From: a virus
Taxonomy: Duplodnaviria; Caudoviricetes
Direction: 5' to 3' (one strand)
IMG/VR virus record: IMGVR_UViG_3300025018_003796
Span: 1 to 43,217 of that record
Length of the DNA: 43,217 nt
The notes beneath the pieces are model-generated. The model worked only from the letters and a program-made list of their open reading frames with translations. It did no database searches and was not told the origin of the DNA. Of this stretch, positions 13,736 to 36,400 are shown one piece after another (the stretch's first letter is position 1; each line of letters opens with the position of its first letter). Made by a program: the position numbers and the translations under genes.

Positions 13736-13757
13736 AACCCCACCATCCTTTCCTAGT

Positions 13758-14078
13758 TCAGCAGGGGCACTCGCGCCCCGACTCTGTTGTTCCCACCGCC
13801 CGCCGTTCCACCCACACCCAGCCGCTGCCAACCCCGCCAACCCGCGCCTCGATCCCGACGGAAACCAGCCCATTCACCTGGATCTGGCACCAGTCCGCAT
13901 TCGTCGGCGGGGCACCCTCCGCCGCCCGGCGCACCATCACCGTCTTGCGACACCGGCAGCCGGGCCGGTGGTCGCTGGCGTGATCGATCATCATCCCGCA
14001 GGCCGTACACTGCCTGAACTCCACCGACGGGCTCCCGTCCTCTGGTAATTTCGCCGTGATCCGCACCATCTGCACCAT
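13758..14078 (-). CDS. Small Cys-rich hypothetical protein
   Basis: ATG 14078 with AAAGGAG RBS; CTAC...H..GCRC; its TGA stop lies inside the hairpin element. Confidence 0.6.
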   Translation of the reverse strand: MVQMVRITAKLPEDGSPSVEFRQCTACGMMIDHASDHRPGCRCRKTVMVRRAAEGAPPTNADWCQIQVNGLVSVGIEARVGGVGSGWVWVERRAVGTTESGRECPC

Positions 14079-14092
14079 GTCTCCTTTCCGCG

Positions 14093-15166
14093 TTAATCCG
14101 CGATACCCCGCACAATCTTGAGTTTCTTGATGAACACCCGTGGCCTCGACCGGATATTGCAGTTCGGCTCCGCCAGGTCCGCCCGCAACATGTCCATCGC
14201 CTCCCGGAACTTGGCCGTGCCGCGTTCCTCGCCCATTTCCGCCCGCATCTCCCTCAACGCCTTGGCGAAGCCGTTGCGGTCCCATTCTCCAGTCGCGCCG
14301 GTCAGAACGGCGCAGACATCCAGCGGGGATTTGGAAAAGATTTCCTCACGAGTGACAGAGCAACAGGAAGTTGGTTCCGTTCCCCTGCCTCCCCCGTTCG
14401 GAAACCTCGGAGAAGCATTCCGATGCTTCGATGATATATTCATATCTTTTTCGATATGACTATGGTGACTAGTCACAAATTCCGATTTGTGACTGGTCAC
14501 TCCCTCGGAGATCGAAATCGAAGGGGGAGGCAGGGGAACGGAACCCCCGCCATTACTGGCGTTTTCGCCAGACCCAACCACCTCCACATAGAAGGTGACA
14601 CCATCGACATCACGCAGGAAACCATCGGCGACGGAACGCCGAATAAAATCCTGTGCAAATTTACGACCGCCATTAACCTTTACTTTCAACACCTCGCAAA
14701 TCTCATCGCGCGTCACATAAAGCCCGCGCTTATCGTTCAGAACATCAAAGAAAACCTGCCGCGCCTTCGCCTCGCGGCTCTTGCGCTGGCGTTCGGCCAC
14801 ATCCGAGGGCGGCGCGCCCTGTTCTTCCGCCCAGCGGGCCACCGCCACGATCCCGCCGCGCGTAATCGTGATCAAGCCCGCATCGCGCAGGCGGTCCAGG
14901 CTGCCCGTAGCCCCCGCCGCGGACATTCCCGGCATCGCCCCGATCCATTTGGCAACCGCCGCCTTCTTCGCCCGCTTCGCGCCGCCCAGGCCGATAACCC
15001 CATCGGACGTGCCGTACTCCTGGCGCGTGCGCCCCGCCTGCAGCCGTAGATTAAAATAAACGCCGTGGTCCTGGACCGGAAGCAGCCGGAACGCCTCATG
15101 CCCCGCGATCCAGTTATGATCCAGCATCTGGAATCGGTAGCCCCTGTAAGTCGCGTTATCAGCCAC
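14093..15166 (-). CDS. Putative phage replication initiator / replisome organizer
   Basis: GTG 15166 with GGGAGG RBS. Winged-helix-like N-terminus (LDRLRDAGLITI), RWAEEQ...AERQRKSRE motif, and internal VTSH repeats typical of initiators that carry the origin. Confidence 0.6.
   Translation of the reverse strand: MADNATYRGYRFQMLDHNWIAGHEAFRLLPVQDHGVYFNLRLQAGRTRQEYGTSDGVIGLGGAKRAKKAAVAKWIGAMPGMSAAGATGSLDRLRDAGLITITRGGIVAVARWAEEQGAPPSDVAERQRKSREAKARQVFFDVLNDKRGLYVTRDEICEVLKVKVNGGRKFAQDFIRRSVADGFLRDVDGVTFYVEVVGSGENASNGGGSVPLPPPSISISEGVTSHKSEFVTSHHSHIEKDMNISSKHRNASPRFPNGGGRGTEPTSCCSVTREEIFSKSPLDVCAVLTGATGEWDRNGFAKALREMRAEMGEERGTAKFREAMDMLRADLAEPNCNIRSRPRVFIKKLKIVRGIAD
14465..14500. repeat. Paired palindromes, candidate replication-origin iterons
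   Basis: GTGACTAGTCAC-aaattccgattt-GTGACTGGTCAC, itself an inverted repeat, beside an AT-rich tract (about 14430-14460) inside the initiator gene. Confidence 0.55.
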
Positions 15167-16031
15167 GTCCCGGCCCTCCCGGCATTTGCGCATGGTAGCG
15201 GCCCTTGAGCATCGGCATTTTCGCCACCCGCATATTGGCCTCCATCTGTTTAAGGAAAAAGGGCACGCTGGCGGCGGCGCACTGGTCCCGCAGCGACTCG
15301 AACCACTCGCGGCGCGCAAAACGCCGGTTTGCCCCGCTCTCGCAGCCGGCCACCACCCAGCCCAGGCGGTCCAGCCACGGCGAAAGGTCCAACGGCCCCA
15401 GCAGCGGTTCGGCGGAAATCGCCCTCACGTGCGCGGGTGCGTCTATAAGGAAAGGGATTCGCCCCTCCGCCGCCGCCTGGTTCTCCGCGCTCGTCATCAG
15501 GATCACATTCGGCACGGGCCAGCGCGGCACGCTATCAAAGAGCGAATCCGCCGCCAGCGAGAAGCGCGCCCCCAGCCGATCGCCTGCCATCGCCCGGCAC
15601 AGCGGCGGCGAGAACTCCGCGAAGAACCGCGCCAGACGCTCCGGCCGCTTCGTGCAGACAATAAAGGTATGGCGGGCGGCGGCGGACATCACCCCGAAGG
15701 CCGCCGCAATGTCCGCATCCGCCACCCCCTCGAAGAACAGATCATTCCAGACCGCCCAGACCAGCGGCTTGCGCGTCGTCAGCGGGTTCATTAAATCCCG
15801 TTCCATGAAGCGGCACTGCCCCGAGAACCGCCCGCCATCATCGGTCAGCCCGTCATAGCGCTCCCGGATCAGATCATTAGCCTGGCGGCGGCGAACATGC
15901 GTCGCGCTCGCCGCCCAGCAATTCGCGCACCCGGCCGACACATGCGCGCACCCCTCCACCAGCGACCAAGCCCGGTCCCACCACATCCCCGCCGACAACC
16001 GTTCCCCACCCGTCTCGCGCATAACAACCAT
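15159..16031 (-). CDS. Phage Gp37/Gp68 family (DUF5131) protein
   Basis: WSLVEGCAHVSAGCANCWA, NDLFFE, CTKRPER, ISAEPLLG, WVVAGCESG, VPFFLKQ. Confidence 0.9.
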   Translation of the reverse strand: MVVMRETGGERLSAGMWWDRAWSLVEGCAHVSAGCANCWAASATHVRRRQANDLIRERYDGLTDDGGRFSGQCRFMERDLMNPLTTRKPLVWAVWNDLFFEGVADADIAAAFGVMSAAARHTFIVCTKRPERLARFFAEFSPPLCRAMAGDRLGARFSLAADSLFDSVPRWPVPNVILMTSAENQAAAEGRIPFLIDAPAHVRAISAEPLLGPLDLSPWLDRLGWVVAGCESGANRRFARREWFESLRDQCAAASVPFFLKQMEANMRVAKMPMLKGRYHAQMPGGPGRG

Positions 16032-16117
16032 CCTTTCCTAGATCAGCAGTGGCGCTTGCGCCACGAATCTCCATCAGCAGGGGCACTAGTGCCCCGAATC
16101 TCTGCCCCGAATCTCCA

Positions 16118-16432
16118 TCAGCACTGCCGCCCGCACCCCGACTCAATAACCACCGCCACCAGCGCCCCCAGCCCACTCGCCGACGCCGGGAACCGCCCCT
16201 GCACATGGAAGCGCGACCAGCGCCCCTCATCCTGCTCGAACTGCCGTGCCACGATCACCCGCGTTGGCCGCAGCGAATCCTCCACCGTGATCCGAATAAC
16301 CCGCTCCGCCCGTCGCGGCTCATCAGATTCCAAGGCTCGCCGCTGCCTTGCCTCCCCGCTCGCCAGCCCCATCTTCCGTCCCCGTTCCGAAGCCGCCCAC
16401 GCCCGCCGCCGCAAATACCAATTACTAGCCAC
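16118..16432 (-). CDS. Hypothetical protein
   Basis: 104-aa ORF with basic ASERGRKMGLASGEAR motif. Confidence 0.55.
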   Translation of the reverse strand: MASNWYLRRRAWAASERGRKMGLASGEARQRRALESDEPRRAERVIRITVEDSLRPTRVIVARQFEQDEGRWSRFHVQGRFPASASGLGALVAVVIESGCGRQC

Positions 16433-16477
16433 CTTACACCCCGTATGTTGCTCGCAAGTATCTACAAAACTTCATAA

Positions 16478-16732
16478 TCACTTGTTCGGCACCTGACAAT
16501 TTCGTTTGCGGCAATAATGACACCGAGCATCCGCCTTGATGGTTTCCTGCGTCGCTCGCTCGCTTTTAGTGGCAATGGTTCTGTCTCCGCAAACGGGGCA
16601 ATCCCAAACCCATTGGATCAGGTCATCACCACAAGTAGTCTTGTTGTCATCAGCAGTGGCGGGCCGAACATCAACTTGGACCGTACAGGCGGAAGTGCGA
16701 TCACGGTTAGAGAACAGATCAAGCTGATACAT
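16478..16732 (-). CDS. Cassette gene A: Zn-finger-like protein (CPVC...CHYC)
   Basis: AGGAGG RBS and ATG lie inside the attC-like site at 16663-16767; lower GC. Confidence 0.65.
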   Translation of the reverse strand: MYQLDLFSNRDRTSACTVQVDVRPATADDNKTTCGDDLIQWVWDCPVCGDRTIATKSERATQETIKADARCHYCRKRNCQVPNK

Positions 16733-16767
16733 CGCACTTCCTCCTGCCGGTCAAGTCAGCGTTAGAT
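16663..16767 (+). mobile_element. attC-like site (105 bp)
   Basis: GCCGAAC-atcaa-CTTGGACCG...16-bp inner stem with one mismatch...CGGTCAAG-tcagc-GTTAGAT; extra base in the left arm. Confidence 0.8.
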
Positions 16768-16770
16768 TCT

Positions 16771-16941
16771 TTAGATTGGTATTTCACAAATCCACAATTT
16801 TCCTGTACTAATCGCACTCGGGCACCGCCGAGCATTTTTCCCGTCGCAATACCCGTTGGCTCCACCAAGCGTGCATCCGTATTTCTTTTGCCAGCGGTCA
16901 AATTCTTTTTGGTATTCTTTGGTCGTTTTGATCTTCGTCAT
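16771..16941 (-). CDS. Cassette gene B: 56-aa Cys-rich protein
   Basis: ATG 16941 after AGAAGGA; MTKIKTTKEYQKEFDRWQKKYGC...; low GC. Confidence 0.6.
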   Translation of the reverse strand: MTKIKTTKEYQKEFDRWQKKYGCTLGGANGYCDGKNARRCPSAISTGKLWICEIPI

Positions 16942-16964
16942 AACTATTCCTTCTGGTGCGATAA

Positions 16965-17027
16965 ATCTAACATTCGCGTGGAGCATATCCGGGCTCGCCG
17001 CCCGAAATGCTCACGCTGGCGTTCGGG
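16965..17027 (+). mobile_element. attC-like site (63 bp)
   Basis: ATCTAAC-attcg-CGTGGAGCAT...CGGGC/GCCCG...ATGCTCACG-ctggc-GTTCGGG. Confidence 0.8.
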
Positions 17028-17230
17028 CAAATACGTTTCATCCATTCAATGCGCCGCTGTAGTTTGTGGAATCTCTGCGAATCGCCGCTAAACGTGTAGA
17101 GGAAGAACCCCACCGGAGGGAACATGCCAAACGCAGGATATTTCCTGAAGATTGAATCAATCTCGCCTTCATATCTTGAGATGCAGGCCCGAACAACCGC
17201 ATGGAACCTAGCTCGAATAGTCGTTTTCAT
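16967..17230 (-). CDS. Cassette gene C: hypothetical protein
   Basis: Starts in the loop of site 17188-17275 (AAAGGA RBS), reads through site 16965-17027 and stops on the TAG of its core heptamer. Confidence 0.6.
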   Translation of the reverse strand: MKTTIRARFHAVVRACISRYEGEIDSIFRKYPAFGMFPPVGFFLYTFSGDSQRFHKLQRRIEWMKRICPNASVSISGGEPGYAPREC

Positions 17231-17275
17231 GTATCCAATCCTTTCTCCCTCGCAGGTTCATGCAAGGCGTTGTGC
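17188..17275 (+). mobile_element. attC-like site (88 bp)
   Basis: CCCGAAC-aaccg-CATGGAACCT...AGGTTCATG-caaggc-GTTGTGC. Confidence 0.8.
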
Positions 17276-17436
17276 AGAACACACCCGAAGTCATGATCCG
17301 TGTCGCAACCGTACGCGGCACCATCATCATTGTACGCGTCGATCTTCGTCAGAATCACTCGGCAGCTTCCGTAAGGACGGAAGACCAAGCGAACAAAGCG
17401 GCGGACCGCAGCACAACCCATCACCCATTTTCTCAT
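17227..17436 (-). CDS. Cassette gene D: hypothetical protein
   Basis: 69 aa with ATGA coupling at both ends; its stop is inside the loop of the attC-like site. Confidence 0.55.
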   Translation of the reverse strand: MRKWVMGCAAVRRFVRLVFRPYGSCRVILTKIDAYNDDGAAYGCDTDHDFGCVLHNALHEPAREKGLDT

Positions 17437-17732
17437 ATCTCACCTATTTCCCCGGCTTTTGCTGGCCGGTCAGCTCCCTGCATCCTCACGCCCACACGAG
17501 CAAAGCGCATCCCATCGGCCTCCGTCACAATCAGGTTGCACCCCATAACCTGGAGAAGACGGGCCGAAGTAACAGGCCACTGGCCGATCGGGACCGTTCG
17601 GGCAGCTATACACCACCGGAGGTCCTCTAGCTCGCGAACACCAAGCAGAAGCGCGTTCGGCGCGACATTGTGTTCCTGCCAGTAGGCCTGGTATCCATTG
17701 TCCAGCCTGGTCAACATGTCACAGAACATCAT
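17433..17732 (-). CDS. Hypothetical protein
   Basis: 99-aa ORF tightly packed in the operon, GGGGTGG RBS. Confidence 0.6.
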   Translation of the reverse strand: MMFCDMLTRLDNGYQAYWQEHNVAPNALLLGVRELEDLRWCIAARTVPIGQWPVTSARLLQVMGCNLIVTEADGMRFARVGVRMQGADRPAKAGEIGEI

Positions 17733-17997: not shown

Positions 17998-18106
17998 CCC
18001 CCTAGCTCACCCTGGCCACTCGCGGCCAGGAAAAGAAGACAGGCGGCGGGGCGCTTTGCAGGGTTCATTAATTGTTCTTAACGATCCACGCCCCGCCGCA
18101 CCGGGA

Positions 18107-18337
18107 TCACACGACCCCGGATTTAAGAGATTCATTCCTAGCCCGCGACAACCGCGGCAACCGCCACAACTCCGCCCCCACCAGGTCCCGGATACGGTCA
18201 AGCTGGGCCGGGGCAATATGCGCCGGAATCCGCGCCTCGCTAAGCCGCGCCACCTGCCGCAACACCGCCAGCGTTTCATGGTCCTGCCCTAGCTCACCCT
18301 GGCCGCTCGCGGGCAGTGGTCCAGCATCACACATCAT
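18107..18337 (-). CDS. Hypothetical protein
   Basis: 76-aa amphipathic ORF overlapping the ASCH gene stop; preferred over the Arg/Gly-rich alternative 18007-18279. Confidence 0.4.
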   Translation of the reverse strand: MMCDAGPLPASGQGELGQDHETLAVLRQVARLSEARIPAHIAPAQLDRIRDLVGAELWRLPRLSRARNESLKSGVV

Positions 18338-19392: not shown

Positions 19393-19485
19393 TTCTCACC
19401 TCTTTTCATCCAGTCCTGCCCCGCCGTTCACGGCGGGTCACCGTGTAGGTCAGCCGGGGCACTCGTGCCCCGGCCACCAATCGAA

Positions 19486-20802: not shown

Positions 20803-21879
20803 TCAATCCAGTCCCGCCCCGGCATTCCTGCCGGCCATCAACACCCGCCATGCGAGCGCAGCCACTGCCGGAACTTGCCCGTTGCCAAGGGCTTTAAGTC
20901 GGTCCACCCGAGCGGCCACCCCATTAGCCACTCGACCCACGTCGGGTTCAGACTCCCACCAGTCTCTATTGTTGCCGTCTGCGCACACAGAAGCCCCTTC
21001 TCCAGCATGTGTGAATGGCTCTTGCTCCCGATCGGCCCCAAACCTTTCGCGTCCGATGCTCTCGGGGTTCCGAATTTGTTCGATTCCTTCGGTCGGCATA
21101 TCGCCCCGTAAAGGGTGTCGTCCTTCTCCCGGTGCCCGCCCGCGCACTGGCTGTCTTCCGCCCGAGGAGTTGGGAAACGCATATTCACAGCCGCCGCAAG
21201 CTGCATCCCTGCTTTCCCTGCCGCCTGCGGCGGAGTCGGCTTCTTGCGCCGGTTGCTTCCCGCATGGGCAATCGGCGTCGGCCACATATTCACCGCCACA
21301 CAGAGACTTAGCCCGTGCTTTCCCGCCAACTGCGAGGGCGTCAGCCTCGTCTGCCGGTTCTCGTTCGCACTCGCCTGAGGCGTCGGCCAGTTCTGCCGCG
21401 ATCCATATCCGCTCCCGCTTGTGTGGCGCTCCGGCGTCGCAAGCCCCCAGCACACACCACCTTGCATCAAACCCCATCGCGGCCAGGTCTCCGAGAACAA
21501 CTCCAAGCCCCCGAACAGTGAGCATTGGTGAGTTTTCCACGAACACGAATCGCGGTCCCACTTCGCGAATGATCCTTGCAAACTCTTTCCAGAGTCCGCT
21601 GCGCTCGCCTGTGATTCCTGCCCCTTTTCCGGCGCATGAAATGTCTTGGCAAGGGAAACCCCCGCTGATGACATCGACCCGCCACGGCCACGGCCGGCCG
21701 TCGAACGTACGCACATCGTCCCAGATAGGGAATCGAGGTAAACATCCGTCAGCCTGCCGTTGCAGCAGAACTCGGCGTGGGTAATCTTCGATTTCAACGG
21801 CGGCAACGGGGTGCCACCCGTGCAACAATCCTCCGAGGATTCCCCCGCCGGCCCCCGCAAATAATGCCAGCTCATTCAC
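20803..21879 (-). CDS. DNA (cytosine-5)-methyltransferase, alpha-like polypeptide (motifs I-VIII and X)
   Basis: LFAGAGG (I), GGFPCQD (IV), VENS (VI), PHKRERIW (VIII), RLKALGNGQVP (X); motif IX is missing from this frame; GTG start at 21879. Confidence 0.9.
   Translation of the reverse strand: MNELALFAGAGGGILGGLLHGWHPVAAVEIEDYPRRVLLQRQADGCLPRFPIWDDVRTFDGRPWPWRVDVISGGFPCQDISCAGKGAGITGERSGLWKEFARIIREVGPRFVFVENSPMLTVRGLGVVLGDLAAMGFDARWCVLGACDAGAPHKRERIWIAAELADASGECEREPADEADALAVGGKARAKSLCGGEYVADADCPCGKQPAQEADSAAGGRESRDAACGGCEYAFPNSSGGRQPVRGRAPGEGRHPLRGDMPTEGIEQIRNPESIGRERFGADREQEPFTHAGEGASVCADGNNRDWWESEPDVGRVANGVAARVDRLKALGNGQVPAVAALAWRVLMAGRNAGAGLD
20838..21875 (-). CDS. Overlapping +1-frame C5-MTase partner polypeptide (beta-like; motif IX and PTP repeats)
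   Basis: 345-aa stop-free frame with LNPTWVEWLMGWPLGWT (motif IX) and four (W/F)(P/G)TP repeats; analogous to the M.EcoHK31I beta subunit. Confidence 0.8.
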   Translation of the reverse strand: MSWHYLRGPAGESSEDCCTGGTPLPPLKSKITHAEFCCNGRLTDVYLDSLSGTMCVRSTAGRGRGGSMSSAGVSLAKTFHAPEKGQESQASAADSGKSLQGSFAKWDRDSCSWKTHQCSLFGGLELFSETWPRWGLMQGGVCWGLATPERHTSGSGYGSRQNWPTPQASANENRQTRLTPSQLAGKHGLSLCVAVNMWPTPIAHAGSNRRKKPTPPQAAGKAGMQLAAAVNMRFPTPRAEDSQCAGGHREKDDTLYGAICRPKESNKFGTPRASDAKGLGPIGSKSHSHMLEKGLLCAQTATIETGGSLNPTWVEWLMGWPLGWTDLKPLATGKFRQWLRSHGGC

Positions 21880-22094
21880 ATATCCCCCGCCTTCAACAAC
21901 ACCGCCGCCACCGCCAGGCACAGACACACCAGCGCCGCCCCCGCGATCTCGAGTGCCACGCCGCCGTGCCACACCCGCACCCCCGCGAACATACAAACCA
22001 CCGCCGCCGCCGCCCCGATACCGTCCACCGCCAGCTTGCGCCAGCGCACACACCGCCGAGCCACAGAAACCCGCACAACCCGTTCCACGCTCAT
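21876..22094 (-). CDS. Small membrane protein (2 TM)
   Basis: Two hydrophobic stretches; overlap coupling at both ends. Confidence 0.6.
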   Translation of the reverse strand: MSVERVVRVSVARRCVRWRKLAVDGIGAAAAVVCMFAGVRVWHGGVALEIAGAALVCLCLAVAAVLLKAGDM

Positions 22095-22378
22095 ACCCCA
22101 CCATCCTTTCCTAGATCAGCAGGGGCACTCGTGCCCCGAATATCCGTCACGAACACCAACTGCCGCGCCTCCAGTTCCGCCGCCTTCCGCCGCCTCGTCT
22201 TCCATCCCTTCCGCCTGGCCGCCGCCGTTTTTCGCCGGTAATCCAGCGTTGCCGCCGCGATCTCCCGCTGCATCTGGTCGCACCGGTCCAGCGCCTGCCG
22301 CGCATCCGAGAGCGCCAGCGCCGCCCCCGCCACCGCCAGCACACAACAGAGAAGAACCACAACCGCCAGGAACATCAT
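22091..22378 (-). CDS. N-terminal TM, coiled-coil/basic protein
   Basis: AAAGGAG RBS, hydrophobic N-terminus, AARRKGWKTRRR. Confidence 0.6.
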   Translation of the reverse strand: MMFLAVVVLLCCVLAVAGAALALSDARQALDRCDQMQREIAAATLDYRRKTAAARRKGWKTRRRKAAELEARQLVFVTDIRGTSAPADLGKDGGV

Positions 22379-24424: not shown

Positions 24425-27400
24425 TCACCGGTCAGCCTCGGCGGCTGCCCGGCGGGCGGCCCTGATGAGTTCGCGCTTCGGAGGGCGAACCATACTGCGT
24501 TCAACGGCGTTGATTGATCGGTTGTCGTAATACGGTACATTCCCGTAGGCTCCCAGCCCCTTGTCTGTCACCCGTTTGTTGTACGCCTTGATTTCCTCGG
24601 CGATTTTGTCTTTTTCCTTTTCGGATCGCTGTTCTTGCGGGGCCAGCAGCCATTTCCGGTAGCGGGCGGAGATCTCGCTGCGCATGGCGGCATATTCGGA
24701 TTCGATCTTGCGGTCGGCCCATTGTGTCTCGCGCATGGCCGCGATTGAGGCCGGGTTCGCGCCGGCGGCCCGGAGAATCGTTTCCCCGGTGGTGGCCTTG
24801 CGCGGCTTGTCGCCATCGAACAGCGGCATATTGTTTTCGCCAGTGAGACCTTCGCTGGCTTCGCGGTAGGCTTTGACAAAGTTAGCCTCGAATCGCGGCA
24901 ATAGCGTCTCCGCCGCCTTGAGTGCATTCCCCTCGGCAGCGTACTCCCCGGCTTTGATATAATCGAGGACGGCCGATCCGGGGGCACCGAACCAGTCATA
25001 CCACTTATCGAGTTCAAAGGTCCGCACACCGAGCGAGCCTGAAAGATTGATGTTGGCGGCACCCAGCAGCCCGTAACGGGCGGTGCGTCCAGCGGTGCGC
25101 CCGGCAAAGCCGCCAAGCTGTTCGCTGAAGTATTCCTCGATCCATTGATAGTATTCCTCCTCCGGGTCTTCCGGCGGCTCCACGCCGAACGCCTTAAATA
25201 CCATTTTCGCCAGCAGGACGACAAACTGGCGAGGAATGAACGCCTGCGGACCGGCCAAAAGCGCCGGGGCGACCAGCATCCAGGCCAGCGCGCGGAAGTT
25301 TTTCTTATCGACAGCGATTTCCTTCATCAGCAGGTATGTGTTGTGGGCGAATCCCTGGAACATATACATGGACCGCAAGGTCTGCGCACCAACGGACGGG
25401 CCGCGCGTCCATGCCGGAAGATTGGTCTTGCCGAATACCGAGTTGGCCTTGTTGGACACATACAAGCCTTTATTCAATGCCGCCTCGTTGTCTTTTGCGG
25501 TCCACTCCCCTTTGTGCTGCTCCCTGATACCCCGGTAAGTGGCGGCAATCGTGGACATTCGAACGAGCCGTTCCACAACAGAGTAGGCCAGCAAGTGCGA
25601 TTCCGTGAACTTCTGCATCACCATACCGCTGCGGCGCTGTAGCACGGCCAGTGCCTCGTGGTGTATCTGGCTGCTGTCCCACCCGCGGGCGTGGATCTCG
25701 TTGAACAGTTCCGCGCCGGCAGTGTCGAGCCCCTGCCCTTTGCCGGTCTTCTGGTGAATCTGCCAGCGCACATAGTCGGAGGCTGAACGTGTCAGCAGCT
25801 TTGCCGTCTTGAGCATCGGAATATCAGCAAAGGCGCTCATGGCCGGGCCGCTATGCGTGACCAGCGAGGTGAAGTTGACCAGTCCTGAAAACAGACTGGA
25901 CATATACTTTGTGGCCGTAAGTCCCTTGAGTGTCCCGATTACCCGCTCCGAACGTGTCTCGTTGCGCAGCATCTCCCGTGCGTATGAGACCGCCTCATCG
26001 TAGGCGTTGCCCTGTGTGGCGCTGTCGATCCTGTTTTTGGCAACCTCGTCGGCGTAATCGTGATACCAGTCTACAGCGGCTGCATCAATGTCCTCTGCCG
26101 TGACCCTGCTGGCTGTATTCTCGGCAATGAATGCAGTCATTCTGCGCATCCGGTATTGCCGCCACGTCTCGGTCTGCCCGGTAATGGACCGCATGAACTC
26201 CTTGGCGAGCAGCCGTTTGGCGGTGCCGCCGGCAATGCTCTTGCCGGAAAGCGTGATCGCCTTGAGCGCGTCGGTCTCGTATCCCTGCCAGACCTCCTTG
26301 CCGGTGGAACCGTCGCGGGCGATCTTGTGGGACCGGCTACCGCGCTGGTGGATCAGGTCGGCGATGTTTTCGGTAATCGTCTCGGCAAAGGACGAAACCT
26401 GCATCTTGGTGATCTCGTGGCGTAGCAGTGCATTGACAAGGCGTTTTTCAATATCCCCTTTCGGATTGATGAACCGCCATTCCTTCGGCGAATCGTCCAG
26501 CGTCATGTATTTGCCGCCTGCATCCTTCAGGATGCGGTGCTGATGCTTGCTTGTCACGCCGCCCTCAATAACAAAGTGCTTCTCGATTTTCCCGTTGAGC
26601 GTCTTGTAATCCTCCCACCGGCTGGAAATATTGATGGATTCAAGCCCGCGTGACTCTTTTTCAGTCTTCTTGATCTTGTCGAGTGCTTTCTGCAGTTGAT
26701 CGTTAAGGGCGAGCACGGAAACATCCATATAGGAGGTCTCGCTCGGGCGATCGGATACGGACTGGCTGAACTGGTCGTATCCCTGGCGGCGAAGTTCGCG
26801 CATCTTGGCCCAGCGCATCAAGCCCGTGTCGAACAGTTGCAGGAATCGCGCCCCATCACTTGTGCGGACGGCCGATAGCTTGAACTTGCCGCTGCGGCGC
26901 ATACGCGGCATGTAATAGCCCCGCCGGTCGCCCATCTCGCGCAAGGCCTCCCACAGGTCGCCCATTTCCCCGTCGGCCTTCTTGATCTTCGGCATCGGCA
27001 AGCCCAGGTCGTCAAGCTCGTCCTGCGCCGTCTGCACCTCGCCGCGAATCTGTTCATACGCCCGGTCGTTGATCCGGCGGACCGCCAGCAGCATCTCTGC
27101 GGCCTCGGCGCTGTAGCCTTCCTTGCGCAGGTCGTTCGCTTCCAACTGGTGCGCGGCTTCCCATGCCTGGCTCTCGTAGGTGAAGTTATCCTGAAGTGCC
27201 CCACCCTGCTTGACGGGTTTTCCATCCAGGCCGAAGACCATCCAGCCGCCGTTGCGGTCATCCTCTACCGCCCGGTAGCCCTTGGCGTTCATATCGCGGG
27301 TCCAGAGGTATTTCTCCAGGCGTACCCACTCGGGATTCTGCCAGGAAGATATGGCCTTGAGCGCTGGGCGGCCCTTGGTTGTGAACTTGCGCACGGCTTC

Positions 27401-30400
27401 CAGGTCGCTATCCCCTCGCCCGTCATCACCCTGATTGAAGACCAGGCTTTCAAATTTGAATTTATTGTCCATCCAGCGAGACGCGGACTCGACCATGTTG
27501 CGCAGGCCGGGGACTTTCTCGCCGTAATGGTGAATCGTTGACGCCAGCAGGTCAACCCATGTGATATTCGGGCGCTGGTTGGAATCCCGGATATGTGCTT
27601 CGGCCATTGCCGCCGCACTCTTGTAGCGGCTGGGAACGTTGGCATACACATCATCCCACGAGGATTTCGGGTTGTTTCTGCGGTATTCGGCGATTTGCTT
27701 GTCTGTCGCCTTCCAACGGGATCCGTGGCGCTGGAGTCCACCGATAGATGCCATTGTCATATCCATGGCCTGATTCCACATCGTTTCCGCCTTTTCCTTC
27801 TCGAACTCGGCTTCTGCCGGGGGCTTGTCCAGGTGGGCCGGGGGCTTGAACTCCCAGGCGGTGTCGCCATTCTCGGTCTTGACGGCCTGCAGGAATGGCG
27901 CGCCATCGGGCACGTCGTTGGGATCCTCTGTACGGAACACGCCGGGGCGGACCTCCACCGGGCCGGACTGGTCGCCAGCATCGGCGAGGGCAAAGCGGGG
28001 TTCGTCGGTGGCCCTGTCGAACCGCTCGGAAAGCGTCTTCACGCGACCCGAGTCGTCGCGTAGCTCGGTAGCTAATGTCGGCATACTATAGAATCCCTTA
28101 ATCCATTCAGCCGGAACATTGCCGTGGATCTGTATGCCTGAATAGGTGCCATACGTCACGTTAAAGTTCCCGTCCCACGAAAACCTTTCTAGCGTCTTTT
28201 TTATAGGGATTTTAAGATGAATAACAGTATGCGCGTCATTTAGCGCGCTCAATATCCCATCATATCCCATCGCGATGTCATCAGGATCCAAAAACACATA
28301 AACAGACGAATCCCTTGCATTTCCCGTTCTGCCTGACGAGCTTAGCTCTGTTCCGTTTATGCCGCTTGCAAACTTTTCTTTTGGTGCATCTGTGACATGA
28401 TAAGCGTCAACTTCTTTCGCGTCTGTAAGCCTTCTCAACTCACGCATCATAAAGGACATTGAATCTTCATCATATCCCAGAACACCATTGTTGTCATAAA
28501 ACTGCGCCAAGGATTCCAGCGCCTTGGTGGTCATTTCTGGCTGTGGAATATTATTTGTTTTTATCCATGCGCGATTAACCATGCGCTGCGCTTTTTCCCA
28601 ATCTTCTGTCTCCACCGCCGCCAGGTAGGCGGCATCCTGCTCGGCGGTGACGCCCTGTGCCTTATCTCCCCGCGCCGCCGCCAGTTGATTCATCATTGGC
28701 GCATCAGTGTTGTTCTGTTTATCCATGCGGGCCTGTATAACCGAATTGACATAATCCCGCAACTCTGAATCGGTGGCGGAGAGCTTCATGCCGGCGGCGC
28801 GGCCGATCCGGCGGATGGTGGCGACAATGGCGTCGACAAACCGACCCCAGAGGGAGCGGTTGGTCTGGCCGTCGCGGTAGGCCTTGGCGGCCAGTTCACG
28901 GAAGAACTCGACCGATCCGGGTTTGAAGCCGTAATTCTTTTCGATCTCGCGGGCGATTGACTGCCACTTGCCGCCGTAGGTGGCGATTCCAAGCCGCCGG
29001 GTGCGGACGGGATCGGCAAACTCGTTCTCGATCCGGTGGAAGGCTTCCTCGCGAATGTCGCCGGCCAGTTCGCCGGCATTGTTGTAGCGGTCCAGGATGA
29101 ACCAGGACTTGTCGCCCATCGTCACCGCCCGCACCTGCCCTGCCCCATCGCGCATATAGCGGGCCTGGCCCTCGTTGAGGATCGTCGCGCGCATCTTCTC
29201 CGTGACCGGGATGCTCCAGACCTGCTGTGTGGGCCGGATCTCCGCCGCCAGCTTCTCAATCAGAGCATCGGCTTCGGCCTCGGTACGTTTCCGCCAGGTA
29301 TTAGGCCACTGCGTTACGATCCAGCCGTATTGGTCTTTCGCCTTTGTTGCCTCAATTCCGGTGGTATCGCCTTTCAGTGACGGATCAATGCTCGTCTTGC
29401 CCACCGCCGCGTCCTTGTCAAGCTTCTTGAGATACTTGGCCACCTCGGTCGGGAGGATCTTGTCGTAGAATCCCTTCATCCCATCGCCGCCGATTTCGAG
29501 GTCAAGGCCGGACCAGTCCTGCATTCCGTCAGGGGCGGCGACGATCTTGGCGGCTAGTTCCTTCCCAATCACGTCCGGCAATTTTTCCGCCGTTGTTGTA
29601 GTATCGAGCACCGAAACACCGTCTTTGCGGGCTTCTATGCGATACTGCCCGTCTTCTTTGCGGGTACTCGAAACCGTGTCCACCTGCTTGGCTAGGCTGT
29701 ACCGCTCATTCTGCACCTCGCCCGGCGTCCAGGCCACGGCGTCATAGCCCTGCTCGGCGGCCATGCGCAGCACGCGCTTGAACGCCAGCATCGACCACGC
29801 CGGAGTGCGTTTGAACGGGGCGGCGGGGACGCCCTTGCCGTATCCAGAACCGCCGGGAGAGAAGTCGTCGGGTTCTTTTTTGTAACCTTCCTCGCGTCCG
29901 CGCTGGTGCCAGTCGCTCTGTATTTCCTCGATGAACAGGGTCTTGCGAGGGGGCGTGTACGAGGTTCCGTCCGCGCTCGTCACGCGGTCATTCAGCCGCA
30001 TGTGGACAAGGATGTTCGGATCCTCGGGCCAGTGGGAGGATGTGAAAACGCCTGCGTTGCGAATGCTTTTCTGCTTGTTTAGCGTATCAATCGCGGCTTT
30101 TGTTGCGGCTTCTTCCGAAGAATGCCCCTTGGTTAGCGCCGTTTGCCCGGCTTTGTGAATGACATAGTATTTCCCGTCGTTAGGAGATTTAACGGCCCGA
30201 TACTCTCCGGGTAGCTCGGTTATCCGCGTGCGAACAACCGGCAGCCTGATCAACACCTCGCGGTAGTTCTCGCCGCCGGGTAGCTGGTACTGGCCGAACT
30301 TGGTGTTTGCTCCCACAAGCACCTGGTCTCCGTGGGGTGTATCTTCGACATCGGTTGCCCTTCTCGCGTCCTCAATGTCTTCGATTTCAGAAACATACCG

Positions 30401-33400
30401 CTCGGGAATGTCTTTCCGTGCTCCATCCTGGTCCTGATACAGCCAGCGCAGCGGGCGTCCAGACATGTACGGCATGAACCCTGTAGGCACGCCCAACTCT
30501 ATCCCGATTTGGCGAAGGCGCTGCTCTGCCTGCTCGGCTTTGCTCATAACGCTGGCGTCTTCCTTAACGACTTCTTCCAGCTTCGGTCCGCCCTGCTCGA
30601 TGAAGTCCAGCACCTGATCCTTGGTGACCTTGCCCTCGATGCCCTTGAGCCAGTCGGCCAGGCCGATCTCCTCGTACTCGTCGAGCTTGAACGCGCCATT
30701 CTTCTGCGCGCCTTCAAGGCGGGCAACAAGATACTTGGCGGGCATAGCCTTGAAATCCATCCGTTCCACTGCTCGCCCGAGGGCGGAGTAGAACCCGAGT
30801 TTATCCTGGTTGACTTCCGATCTGGCGGCCCGGCCCTCGCCGCGGGCGATTGCCTGGCGGACCGGGGCGGGTAGAGCGTCCAGGCTTTCGACGGCGCTGG
30901 CGTTCTCGCCGGCCCACGGGGTTTTGTCGGCTTCGGCCTGCATTGTCTTCTCGAACGCGGTGCGGGCGATCCCCGCCGCCGCCGCCGTGGTGGCCCCGCG
31001 CGCGGCTTGGGCGGTGGTGCCTGAAACCTGTCCGTTGATGTCGCGCACCCGTTCGATGGCCATATTATCGGACATATTGCCTGGGCTCGGGCGGAACCTT
31101 GCCTTGGATAGAACGGACAGGCGGGCGGCTATCGCCGGGATCTGGTTAACGTCCACCCTGGCGATCATTCGGTTGCCGACGCGGTTGAAGTCGCCGGTAA
31201 TCGCGCGGATCTGGTCGTCGAGGAAATACTTACTGCCGGTCGCGCGCGCTGCCGGTACGGAAATGTTGATCTGCCCGGTGTAGCCTCGCGGCGTAAGGCG
31301 GACAACATCGCTTTCAACGCCGGATCGCTCGGTATCGAGCCATAAGCGGACCGCCGCGCCGTCCACCAGATCCCGGCGGGGATCGCGGGCAAGCTGGCTG
31401 GGAGTCCAGGTCATGGGCATAAGCAGGCCCGTGATGGTTTTGCCTTCGCGCGTCTTGAACGAGACCAGCCGCCCGCGGTTGCCTGCCGCGTTGATCGCCC
31501 GGATTGGATTGCCTGAAATGATCTGGCGCTCGAATCGTCCGCCGGTCTGGTTGACATCGACCTGGCTTTCGTCGGCATAAGCCCGCCCGATGGAGAAACC
31601 GCCATTACCAACCTGCGACAACGGCACGCGCAGCGAATGGCCGCCGGGCTGGTTGGTCATGATATGCAGCACGATACTACCGGGAGACGCCTTGACACGA
31701 TCGGCGGTCTGTTCGGGCAGGGTGATACCGGTGATCATGCCGATCGCGTCGATACCTTCCTGCTCGTTGGTGATGCTCGCATACTCACCAGCCATACGCT
31801 GGAGCGACAACAGTACCGGTGCCACGCGGCTCTGGAATATGGCAGAGGCATTACGCGCATGATCGAGCCGCTTACGGACAGTGGATAGTTCACCAAGCGT
31901 GATGTCGGGATTCGCAACGGTGGTTTCGCTTTCGTCGATGATCTTACTATAAGCCGTTTCAATCTGTTCCACAAAACCGACAATGCGCTCCTGCATGGCC
32001 TCGGCACTGCCGGAACGCTCCTCGAAATCCTTCTGCATTTCCTTGGCGGTTGGCACATGCCGTGTATCCTTGATCTCCCAGCGCTGGATCTTGGTGTCGG
32101 CCTCGAAGATGTTGGCCTCGCTGGTTCCTGGCCGGAGTGTTTCCTCGCTGATCATCACGCCGTCCCAGTCGTCATGCACGGCAATTTCAAGTTCGTACTG
32201 GTCCGTGGCTTTCAAGTAGGCGATATAATCCGTGTATTTCTGGATGATCGCCGCATAGGCCTCTTTCTGGATACGGTTCGGCATCAGGGCCATTCGACCG
32301 GCAAACACGTTGGCGAAGTCTTCCCGGTCGGGAGTGACTGTCCCGGTGCGCTCGTTGACCTCTGGCGACATATCCAGCATATCCTGCAACGCCGGGTTAT
32401 CCTCGAACATATACTGGGCGACGATCTGGTCGCCGTAGCGGTTCATGAAGTCAACCTGGTCGAGCGAGACGCCGCCTTCCTGCGCTGCCGTCGTGTTGGC
32501 GTTGAGGCTTTTCATCTTGCGTTCAAGCACCATGGCCGGACGCCGCTCGGCTTCCAGCGGCAATACCGGCATCGAATACTTGGCGCCGCCTGGAATCATA
32601 CCGGTGCGCTTGATCCGGCCCAGGGTCTGGACCATGACGTTAATATCCCCGTGAGGCTGGGCGATGATCATATTGCGGGTCTTGATCGGGCGTTCCTTGA
32701 ACTTCGGGGAGGCGTGGATCGAAAGGCCCGTTGAACCGGAGGCGTTGAGGATCAGTGCGTCGAGGTCGCCGTTATTGAATCCATTGACCAGGGCATTCTT
32801 GTCCGCCTTCTGCCGCCGCTCGTAGATGCCCGACTTATAGGATGAGTCCGCATAGCGGATCCCGCTTTGCCGTCCGGTAAGCTCGCCGACACGGAGCCCC
32901 TTGGACCGTAGCCCCTGTAGGATCGCATCAATCGGGGAAGTGGGAATATCGACTTCAAGATCATTGATCTGCTCGATGATCCTGTCATAGAAATCCTGCA
33001 ACCCGAGTTCGCCGGCGGTGGTCGTGAAGGTTTCCGCGTTACCTTGCGGGTCCTTGACGGAAAAACGAAGCGTGCGGTCCAGCGCACGCCGGAGCATATC
33101 CCTGAAATCCATCGAGACCGGATCGCCGACGCGCCAGCCGTTCTGCTCGGCAAACTGATCCATCATGGCTTCCTGCGTGTTCATCAGGGCGATGACTGGC
33201 TTTTCCCCGCGCTGGTGGGCGGCGACGGCTTCTTCCACTACGGCGTCGACCTTGGTGGCCAGCAGCATCTGGGAGATGTAATTATGCGCGATCGAGGCGA
33301 AGGGGGTGTAATCCACCTGGGCGTCGGTCATGGCGGTTGCGCGGGCTCCGGGGCCATTGTCCCGTTTAATGGAAGTCCTGACAAGATTGCTGAACATCTT

Positions 33401-36400
33401 GATCTCGCGGAATATCGAGGTCGTGTCGTCAACCTTCGACGCCAGTTCATCCGCCCGTTCCTGCTGGACGATCTTACGCTCGAATACAACGCCGGAGAAA
33501 TCGCGTTCACGGCGGACAAGTTGACCGACCGAAGAAAGGGCTTCGGCGACGGCCTGCTGCAAGGCGACGCCGCCGCGGCTCATGGCCTCTACCAGATCGT
33601 TGATATTATCCGCCGCCCTCCCCAGGAGTGTGCGGAAATAGAGCGGGGCGTTATCGGGCCGCTTGGCGTAGGTGGCCGAAAGGTAAACCACGCCTTTTAC
33701 GCCTTTGCCGTTGAGGATTCCTGAAAGGACGGTCGTTGTCCGGTTGGCCCCGCTGCCTCTCTTGACCTCGCCGCCGCGAAAGAATGCGCCCTGCATCGAA
33801 TCGCTACCGCTGGCCTCGTGCGCCTCGTCCATGATGATCATGACGCGCTCATTGCGGGAAAGGTGCGTGAGCAGGCGCTGCTGGTCATTCTGCACGTTGA
33901 TCTGCGGATAGGTGGCAATAACCGTGTCGAACTTCTGCGACGCGATACCCTTGTCGATAATGCTGTTGATCGCCGTGCGCCTGGCACCGGCCGACTTCGG
34001 GGCCTTGAAAAGCACGCGCCCGGTCTCGTCAACCACATCCGCGCCGCCGTCCGTGGAGCCCAGGATGAACGGATTGAAGGAATAGCCGACATCATTGGCG
34101 TCGCGCTGCAAGTCGGAAAAGAGCTTGGCATCCTTTGTGAAGAATATGGGGATGATCCCGTTCTGCTGGGCATAGCGCATGATCCCGGCGGCCTGGCGGC
34201 CCTTGCCTATGCCGGTCTCGTCGGCAATGATCAGCGCGCCGCCGTTCTCGATCTGGTCGATCGCCAGCGCCACGCCGTCCACCTGCTCGGCGGCCATCGC
34301 CCGGTGCAGATCCGCGATCGTATCGTAACCGAGCTTGTACCGCACCCACTCGTCAATGTCGCCGCCCACCTTGTCACGCAGCTTCTCCAGGGCGGAGGCA
34401 ATGCCGGGGGCCATATTCGAGGGGACAAGGGTTTCGAGGCTGGTCGCGTCGGAGGCCGGAACATAACGGTGCTGACCGGCGTTCTGCGGCTGCCCTAGTA
34501 GAGAAGTGCCTCTAGGTAGGTCCCGAGGTTCAACTCGGTCGCCAGTTCCAGCGCGGTCTCCGGATCTTCCATCGGCGTCTGCGGGCTGTTCATCGCGTCC
34601 CTCGCGCTGGTTATCCATTCCCTTATCGGATGACCCGCGTCCGCCTGGGGCAGAAGTTCTGTCATTAGTGCGTGGACTGAAAAGGTCTTGTTCGTCAGGG
34701 GTTCCGGCGGCAGAATCATCCGAACTTCGTATGGCAGGTTTTCTACGAGGCGGGATTGTTCCTCTCGTAGATCCGCTTCGTCCGCCTCGTCCACCAGCCT
34801 TTGCAGGATTGCTGCCTGGTTGCCCAGGAACTGCTCCAGTGTCTTCGGGGGCGGGCTGTTGCGCTTCAGGACGCACATCAGGTCCGATCTTCCGATCGGC
34901 ATCCAAACTGTCTCGTCTTTTTTCAACTGCATCACGCACCTCCTTGGCTCTGGTATAAATATCATCCCACGACGTTAATCTGTCAACACTTTTTGGAGCC
35001 AGATCCTGCGGCACGGAAGGCACGTCCTGCCGCCGCCCGTCAAGGACGATCACCCGGAGCGGCCATTTGGCCCCCTGCTTGCCGTACAGCTCGCCGTCGA
35101 TCTCGAAATGGTCGGCCACATTGAAGTGGTTATGCAGGTAGTTGAGGAACGTGCGGTCGGCCCCCTGCCCTATTTCGCCGGGTTCGCGGTTCGCACCCAG
35201 GATCATGACGGCACGGCCATCGGCGGCCAGACCGCGCAAGGCCTGCAAGGCGATGACATGCTCGATCTTCTTGATCGCGTACCCGTCCACATTGGTGGTC
35301 GGATAGGAAGCAAACGGCGGATTCATCACAATCGTGGCGTGCGGGCCGCCGGGCTCGCGGGCCGTGGCGTCATCGGTCGTGACGGTGGGCACCCCTAGTG
35401 TGCGCAGATTGGACGCGCGGGCGGGATCCAGTTCGTTCGCGGTGACTTTCGCCTTGTCCAGGCCGATCAGGAGCATCCCGTTGCCGCCGGTGGGCTCGTA
35501 GACGCTGGCGGCCAGATCCGCCGCCGCCATATAGGAGGAAATAAACGCCAGCGGTGCCGGGGTGCTGTAGGCCTGGTTCTCGATACTGGTGGAAGTGCGG
35601 GCGGTAAGCAGGGGCTGATTCTCGTAGAGTTCGACCAGTGCCTTGTATTTGGCGGCCGTATCCAGATTCGCGCGGCTGGCGATCTCGTCGGCGATCTTGA
35701 CCAGTTCAAACTCGATGCGCTCCTGTAGCTGCTTGAGGGTGATTCCCTCGGCGCTGGCCATCTGGCGCATCCGCACTGCTTTCGCCTGGTTGCTGTCTCG
35801 TGAGTTGATTAGCTCGCGAAGGGCCAGATCAGGCTTGACGGCTGTATTCACGTTTTCCGCCGCGGCTTTGTCAATAGCCGAAATCACTTCCCGCGCGTCG
35901 GTCCGGGAGATGTCGTCGAGGGTGTCATCCACCGCGCCGGCGCTCTGCCAGGCCCCGTGCAGGAATACCTTGATCGCGTCCCAGAAGTCGGCCATATCGA
36001 CCGATACGTTATGCGCGAACTGCTTGAAGGTCTTGACGCCACCCTCGGCATAGAGCGCGGCCATCTGCGCCGCCAGCGATACGTTCTCGGGGTCCATCAC
36101 TGGCGGTATCTGAAGCGGGTTCATGCTCAAGGTGCCGTTGTTCTTTGACAGGTTCGCCCGGAGTTTGTCCTGGATCGCCTTGAGCTGCGCCTGCTTCTCG
36201 TCGGAAAGGTTCAGCTTCGCGCTCTTGACTTCCACCTTGGCGCGCGCCTTGGGTGCCGGGGCGGGCGACTGGGCGGGCCGGTTCTGTTCGAGCCATGCAA
36301 ACGCCTCGCTGGCTGTGGCGAATCGCGGCGTCTTGTCGATCGCCTTTCCTTTTTCGTCTTTCGTATAGAAAAACGGTTTCCCGATGACTGCTTCGCGGTC

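Follow-up and report, generated by a model that had tools for sequence, protein, structure and literature searches.

Small genes in the early operon of a temperate phage are probably integron-type cassettes of inverted layout: the bottom strand of their attC-type sites is the sense strand of the genes, each mobile unit consists of a site and the gene body downstream of it, and exchange takes place at an AAC triplet, likely through an integron integrase (IntI) which the host supplies in trans. The array behaves as integron cassettes do, with the features of CALINs and, apart from the weak fold of site 3, the testable features of attC sites, and without the classical layout. That a site and the gene body following it form one unit is largely supported at the sequence level, where it rests on independent natural variation.

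The DNA analysed here (the window) is the whole of the IMG/VR provirus record IMGVR_UViG_3300025018_003796, which has 43,217 nt and is 65% complete. The features of the array are listed in Table 1.

Table 1. Sites, genes and units of the array in the window.
Feature	Position	Strand	Remarks
Decayed site 0 (probable)	16424..16490	minus	Downstream of gene A; only the core 16484-16490 is intact
Gene A	16478..16732	minus	84 aa; zinc-ribbon-like phage protein (CxxC...CxxC); start codon within site 1; C-terminus PN-K
Unit A	16485-16761		277 bp
Site 1	16663..16767	minus	attC-type; minus strand is bottom and sense strand; crossover triplet 16761-16763
Gene B	16771..16941	minus	Probably 56 aa; neither its start nor its stop lies in a site
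Unit B	16762-17021		260 bp; recovered whole in other contexts
Site 2	16965..17027	minus	Short, attC-type; gene C reads through; crossover triplet 17021-17023
Gene C	16967..17230	minus	87 aa; begins in site 3 and crosses site 2
Unit C	17022-17269		248 bp
Site 3	17188..17275	minus	attC-type, weak fold; crossover triplet 17269-17271
Gene D	17227..17436	minus	69 aa; site 3 codes for the last 14 residues
Decayed site 4 (probable)	17411..17480	minus	Heads gene D

Results

Genome context of the array

The genes for terminase, portal, capsid, DUF5131, DUF2303, DNA methyltransferases and HTH regulators are located on the minus strand. The array lies among small genes upstream of the DUF5131 gene, and the early genes with PHROG matches around it are also read from the minus strand. 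Genes A to D matched no Pfam or PHROG family, and none of the five plus-strand ORFs over the array had a PHROG match.

Elsewhere in the record, a single minus-strand ORF of 5,951 aa (24425–42280) takes up 41% of the sequence; by eye, it resembles a large polyvalent protein in which some parts look like a methylase and a helicase. Two ORFs (20803–22104 and 20838–21875) overlap on the same strand in different frames, and both match DNA methyltransferase PHROGs. The 408-aa ORF 14093–15319 contains a perfect 23-nt inverted repeat (14373–14395 and 14523–14545, 127 nt apart), which is possibly a feature of a replication origin. Another repeat family is found at gene boundaries of the early region (13742–13791, 16027–16144, 18000–18029, 18287–18316, 19446–19472 and 22100–22149). 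On the minus strand, its members show a GC hairpin and, after it, a tail with an RBS; in part they resemble the 5' arm of one attC family and a motif at 16649, just within gene A. This family may be another module for shuffling or for regulation, or a set of decayed sites.

Anatomy of the sites

Both strands of the 43,217 bases were scanned with a strict definition (AAC, 5–6 nt, an L box with eight of eight pairs and one bulge, 5–6 nt, GTT). Exactly three attC-type sites were found, spanning AAC to GTT at 16667–16763, 16969–17023 and 17192–17271. Among 200 dinucleotide shuffles, which contained a mean of 0.095 sites per window, 19 had one site and none had two. Folding of the minus strand gave z-scores of −5.6 for site 1, −2.9 for site 2 and +0.4 for site 3; taken alone, site 3 thus folds no better than shuffles. 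A relative of site 3 in another phage (L244) keeps the stem through a compensatory pair change. An Rfam search revealed no relevant match. The three attC-type sites within 0.6 kb, together with no PF00589 match in 43 kb, give the array the composition of a CALIN.

At all three sites, it is the left plus-strand arm that contains the bulge, and on the minus strand an extrahelical T and an extrahelical C are six bases apart (T-N6-C). Sites of the attC type carry their extrahelical bases on the arm opposite the crossover AAC (PMC5027507). Because the extrahelical bases follow this published anatomy, the minus strand is the attC bottom strand. A first-pass annotation of the DNA had concluded from the bulges that the plus strand is the canonical top strand while the genes read on the minus strand, and the strict scan bears this out at three of three sites. 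As an orientation control, the same scanner was applied to the Vibrio integron array MK672802, where it placed nine sites antisense to most cassette genes. The annotation had further regarded the extrahelical C as a departure from the usual G. The C is indeed present at all three sites, but it is no distinguishing mark, since attC sites of the T-N6-C type are efficient substrates for four integrases (PMC3053210) and both C and G occur as extrahelical base within the family of site 1.

The 7-nt cores are complementary at seven of seven positions in all four units that can be drawn, two outer cores having been chosen afterwards. As in many attC sites, the cores of the array depart from the RYYYAAC consensus. 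Probable decayed sites flank the array on both sides. The core of site 0 is complementary to that of site 1, no attC fold remains, and a lake contig matches 16424–16487 and then stops there. The core of site 4 (17411–17417) is complementary to that of site 3, and its distance is the same as that of an intact site in the related contig L020. Unit D is equally long in the window and in L020, but a block of about 37 nt directly after the core (17374–17410; 2611–2647 in L020) is replaced.

Site 1 contains AGGAGG (16745–16740) in its stem and the start codon ATG 16732, and gene A has its first 22 codons there. Within its loop, site 3 carries an RBS and the ATGA (17230–17227) in which the stop codon of gene D (TGA) overlaps the start codon of gene C (ATG). 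Gene C (16967–17230) crosses the whole of site 2 and has its stop in GTTAGAT, at the TAG. These three placements had been made in the first-pass annotation and are confirmed. Its more general statement, that the sites double as start and stop modules, applies to the starts in sites 1 and 3; site 2, however, has no credible start, and the stop of gene B is not inside site 1 but 10 nt before it. The protein called for gene B has 56 aa and begins at 16941, outside site 2, where the gene has an RBS of its own; a 71-aa form is absent from the protein collection.

Natural junctions and the polarity of the moving unit

We compared the window with contigs from eight of 22 listed sequencing runs. Gene B together with site 2 (0–1 mismatch) ends at 17023 and is followed by foreign sequence from 17024 in runs X2, X4, X5 and X9. 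In two of these runs the match begins only at 16760 (X4) or 16758 (X9), with foreign sequence before it. Of these runs, X2, X4 and X5 are aquifer samples of one year, maybe of one campaign, and X9 is from a hot spring; most junction contigs have a depth of only 3–5. Contigs bridging 17023 as in the window are also present in X3 and X4. The 3' part of gene C begins at 17019 after foreign sequence in the lake run X17. In X4 and X17 the cores of sites 2 and 3 are also found by themselves, flanked by foreign letters on either side, for which bottom-strand exchange does not account by itself. Contig L001 and contigs of X1, the possible source run, and of X3 terminate at 16763. At the A–B junction in run X1 (16757–16786), the depth is 10.2 between flanking values of 17.4 and 19, and the assembly branches at the crossover of site 1, which suggests that some of the population has a second arrangement. 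The contigs L018–L020 share gene D, but it is followed by a different site, G-bulged and partly decayed, which replaces site 3. A joint from 16258 to 17271 was considered as a candidate empty site and rejected, as the contigs have another attC at this place, which is partly decayed.

In all four runs with a changed neighbour, gene B moves with site 2, which is located upstream on the sense strand, and not with site 1. Core complementarity is symmetrical and therefore gives no information on polarity; this is supplied by the natural variants. The joints at 17023, 16758–16763 and 17271 agree with the exchange point of attC sites, G/TT (AA/C on the bottom strand), and the joints in the proteins are at Asn.

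Change of protein tails at the Asn codon

The AAC serves as an Asn codon in genes D, C and A, and five protein families show either a change of tail or an in-frame insertion at this codon. Near-identical proteins of gene A have three different tails after PN (P0003, P0002, P0004). Two tails after PN follow the same head and body in gene C (P0020, P0021). Gene D also has two tails: L019 is 99.6% identical over 489 nt and has the other tail, from another site. A gene of L131 likewise has two (P0031, P0032), and P0016 equals P0015 with a 69-residue in-frame insertion at Asn, headed by a peptide of the site 2 family. Sites present in other phages (L243, L244) match two of these alternative tails. 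The heads coded by the sites remain with their bodies while the tails change.

The swapping of C-termini at the sites, which the first-pass annotation had predicted, is thus seen for genes A, C and D as near-identical proteins with different tails. The unit it had proposed, a site (with any start signal) plus the downstream gene body, is borne out both by the natural junctions and by the retention of heads when tails change at Asn.

Gene A belongs to a phage protein family (25 family hits). Of 23 more distant relatives compared at the protein level only, seven carry the Asn here with a tail that varies; the others seem to be free-standing. The Atlas proteins resembling gene A fall into unnamed clusters.

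The same site-coded head is also found on unrelated bodies (L020/L212 and L216/L226). Such shared heads need joining at the other end of the site, for which bottom-strand exchange alone is insufficient, and they may reflect the genesis of cassettes.

Translation signals within the sites

An ATG is found 1–7 nt after the searched motif in six of six sites of the site 1 family, and the loops of these sites vary in length and sequence. The ATG was not included in the search pattern for this family; the SD-like motif partly was. The five relatives of site 1, all from other phage contigs, retain the SD-like motif and the in-site ATG, and in each of the five the upstream gene stops on this ATG.

In the folded mRNA, the SD sequence of site 1 has an unpaired probability of 0.17, with an RNA fold z-score of −3.1. 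Site 3 is largely open, with unpaired probabilities of 0.59 for the SD sequence and 0.86 for the ATG. Judged from these models, gating of the RBS by the stem, which had been suggested for the sites in general, is plausible for site 1 only and not for site 3. The suggestion that translational coupling is kept upon insertion finds agreement in the stop/start overlap at site 3 and in five of five site 1 relatives, but not in sites 1 and 2 of the window.

Survey of other phages

Arrays of the same polarity were found in L018/L020/L210, L131, the Mu-like L212, L216, L220, L225, L226 and the complete provirus G005. We curated 32 sites from nine phage records, a targeted and not a random sample, as most records were found with array motifs. 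All 32 sites are inverted relative to the genes. An upstream ORF, with an ATG at least 45 codons upstream, reads through the site in the frame of the AAC at 21 of the 32 sites, compared with 0 and 1 in the other frames. Ten sites are preceded by a stop, which lies within 30 nt in four cases and on T-AA-C in six (all from G005), and one of the 32 belongs to neither class. In the G005 array, the crossover triplet overlaps TAA stops, not Asn codons. This provirus also contains a near-exact tandem duplication of one cassette gene (L204 13858–14136 and 14204–14482).

Several candidates had been excluded before the count because they stood alone or lay within long genes (L131 4277 and 9861; L226 3571 and 7777; L220 919). 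A longer overlap at L204 1324, scattered scanner hits and five antisense calls, three of them overlapping a sense call and two not, were dropped as well.

We searched 59 sense ORFs (58 from a list of 87) and all 73 antisense ORFs for PHROG matches. Eight of the sense ORFs had a match (methyltransferases, Lar-like, HTH), but none of the antisense ORFs. Families of sites recur across unrelated phages, one of them Mu-like. Among 80 DUF5131 loci, three, including this phage, have credible sites; such counts are lower bounds since both the strict and the medium scanner miss many true sites (one Vibrio site in the medium scan; site 3).

The consensus AAC-N5-CNTGGA, put forward in the first-pass annotation for surveying phage contigs, failed in this use, as none of its 16 viral-contig loci contained a real hairpin. 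A wider consensus pattern, with 96 loci, seven scanner matches and one convincing case, was also discarded. Family-specific motif searches performed better (two of two and six of 16 loci, one of the six being this phage). Comparison of the sites with INPHARED by blastn gave no real match.

A genome scan with the site motif detected one chance match (L209) and one phage-like contig in a MAG (L210). The latter is a phage region of the L020 type, binned in a MAG titled Candidatus Peribacteria and probably misbinned. Another contig of the same MAG carries an intI fragment (L240) beside an IS91-like transposase (identified by eye), without attC sites. No link can be made between this fragment and the L210 array.

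Discussion

Relation to known integron systems

The array shares with the cassettes of class 1 and Vibrio integrons the AAC/GTT R box, the complementarity of 7-nt cores, unpaired spacers of 5–6 nt, two extrahelical bases six apart, a variable terminal loop, one small gene per unit and exchange at G/TT (PMC5027507, PMC3053210). Unlike classical cassettes, in which a top-strand ORF is followed by a non-coding attC, the gene is on the bottom strand and the site lies upstream of it. Moreover, the phage sites code for the RBS, the start and first residues of one protein and the tail of its neighbour, and the crossover triplet is locked in frame. Unlike complete integrons, this 65% complete record has no intI beside the array. 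A complete integron also includes a Pc promoter and an attI site, for which there is no general consensus.

CALINs in phage genomes have been published (Qi et al., 2023; PMC9892861). Like these, the present array is an attC cluster without integrase, with small hypothetical genes and DNA methyltransferase cargo. The accessible text of that paper calls the arrays of TJE1 and PH101 typical and makes no mention of inversion, read-through or in-site starts. According to our analysis, TJE1 (L128 77–1467) is canonical at two of two tested sites, and genes also enter sites there with AAC as Asn. For PH101 attC1 and attC2 and P12002L attC1, the bottom strand is on the strand of the annotated genes (PH101 record 75500–78000), with the caveat that short plus-strand ORFs may lie in two of these units. 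A search of open PMC and bioRxiv texts, subscription journals being outside its scope, revealed no paper describing the inverted layout.

A further parallel is ORF-11 of attI1, whose frame extends over the crossover and links translation to the arriving cassette; hairpins of attC sites in mRNA are also reported to influence downstream translation (PMC8876359). The attI1 leader serves the first cassette only (PMC8876359), whereas the cassette sites of the phage carry signals anywhere in the array and real proteins change their tails.

The recombinase and alternative explanations

We propose that IntI acts in trans because no tyrosine recombinase was found in the window and nine other incomplete records: PF00589 had no match in the 10 incomplete virus records searched (the window included; nine with arrays or parts of the same phages, plus G011). 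The enzyme would be of the IntI family, inserting and excising single-stranded hairpins by attC × attC recombination, and its source would be the host chromosome or some other element, with SOS induction as a plausible occasion. Of six phage sites, five were recombined by IntI1, which preferred the bottom strand (PMC9892861). As the PH101 sites on which it acts are inverted, IntI in trans is sufficient in principle.

The same units, with the same polarity, could instead be moved by a dedicated phage recombinase, of a phage IntI clade or Xer-like, encoded in the missing part of the genome or by co-infecting phages. The cargo is of phage type, the spread of site families over unrelated phages suggests a phage-to-phage pool, and the window is only 65% complete. 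Such an enzyme is nevertheless unlikely. The search of the 10 incomplete records found no tyrosine recombinase. In G005, the sole complete provirus with an array, the only one is an ordinary prophage integrase of 421 codons, which scores far below the cut-off for integron integrases. A tblastn search with two IntI queries gave no match in the array loci and matched only the Vibrio control, the window contains no resolvase match, and IntI1 already acts on inverted sites in PH101 (PMC9892861).

Homologous recombination between repeated boundaries, formed by the hairpins, might shuffle the genes without any site-specific enzyme; core families common to many genes, and heads found on unrelated bodies, would be expected in that case. 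We consider this very improbable, as the joints, all at plus-strand GTT, share only this triplet and one to three more bases, and neighbours have unrelated sites. In addition, extrahelical bases and spacer lengths are conserved while loops are variable, and changes in the stems are compensatory.

It is hardly credible that ordinary host cassettes entered the phage inverted and are now relics, with minus-strand ORFs and start signals that are accidental or later accretions. The flanking sites are decayed here and in L020, and the purine-rich bottom strands of attC sites (PMC5027507) make chance SD-like motifs likely. However, no PHROG match was found for 73 antisense ORFs, and gene A, on the minus strand, belongs to a phage family. 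The frame bias (21 versus 0 and 1), the in-site ATG in all six sites of the site 1 family and the exchange ongoing between samples also argue against relics. Finally, an enzyme of mirrored strand use, for which the minus strand would be the top strand in canonical orientation and the gene would travel with its downstream site, would suit the symmetrical core complementarity and the canonical look that gene B has on the minus strand, with core, RBS, ORF, stop and inverse core, but can practically be dismissed, as gene B travels with site 2 in four of four runs and heads stay while tails change, unless these are misassemblies.

Proposed mechanism and implications

For inverted cassettes exchanged by IntI in trans, an incoming unit would leave the upstream gene intact, because the crossover triplet is an in-frame Asn codon or follows a stop. 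The upstream gene would gain a short tail from the 5' arm of the incoming site, or become an in-frame fusion, and at many sites the new tail would end in an ATGA overlap with the incoming gene. The starts within the sites would be translated, and the ribosome arriving from upstream would open the stem of site 1. The inversion may be an adaptation which allows the cassettes to be expressed from the phage operon. Recombination of attC is raised when the recombinogenic strand is on the lagging-strand template (PMC5371416); if the genes are co-directional with phage replication, the inversion would also place this strand there.

We lean slightly towards a broader reading, in which phages have their own pool of mirror-image cassettes, distinct from that of bacteria, the Asn-locked sites are plug-in translation modules, an integrase shuffles protein heads, tails and in-frame fusions as well as genes, the exchange is a general, site-specific engine of small-gene mosaicism in phage early regions, and heads on new bodies are cassettes made from ordinary phage genes.

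The usual account of phage mosaicism is recombination, either homologous or illegitimate. In this array, whole small genes are exchanged at one defined triplet. If an integron integrase is responsible, integrons act on phage genomes, and the chemistry does not fix the polarity of cassettes. In that case, many variable ends of phage hypothetical proteins would be recombination-site sequence, which matters for annotation and for the building of protein families. Families with both cassette and free-standing members, such as that of gene A, offer a handle on the question of how cassettes arise.
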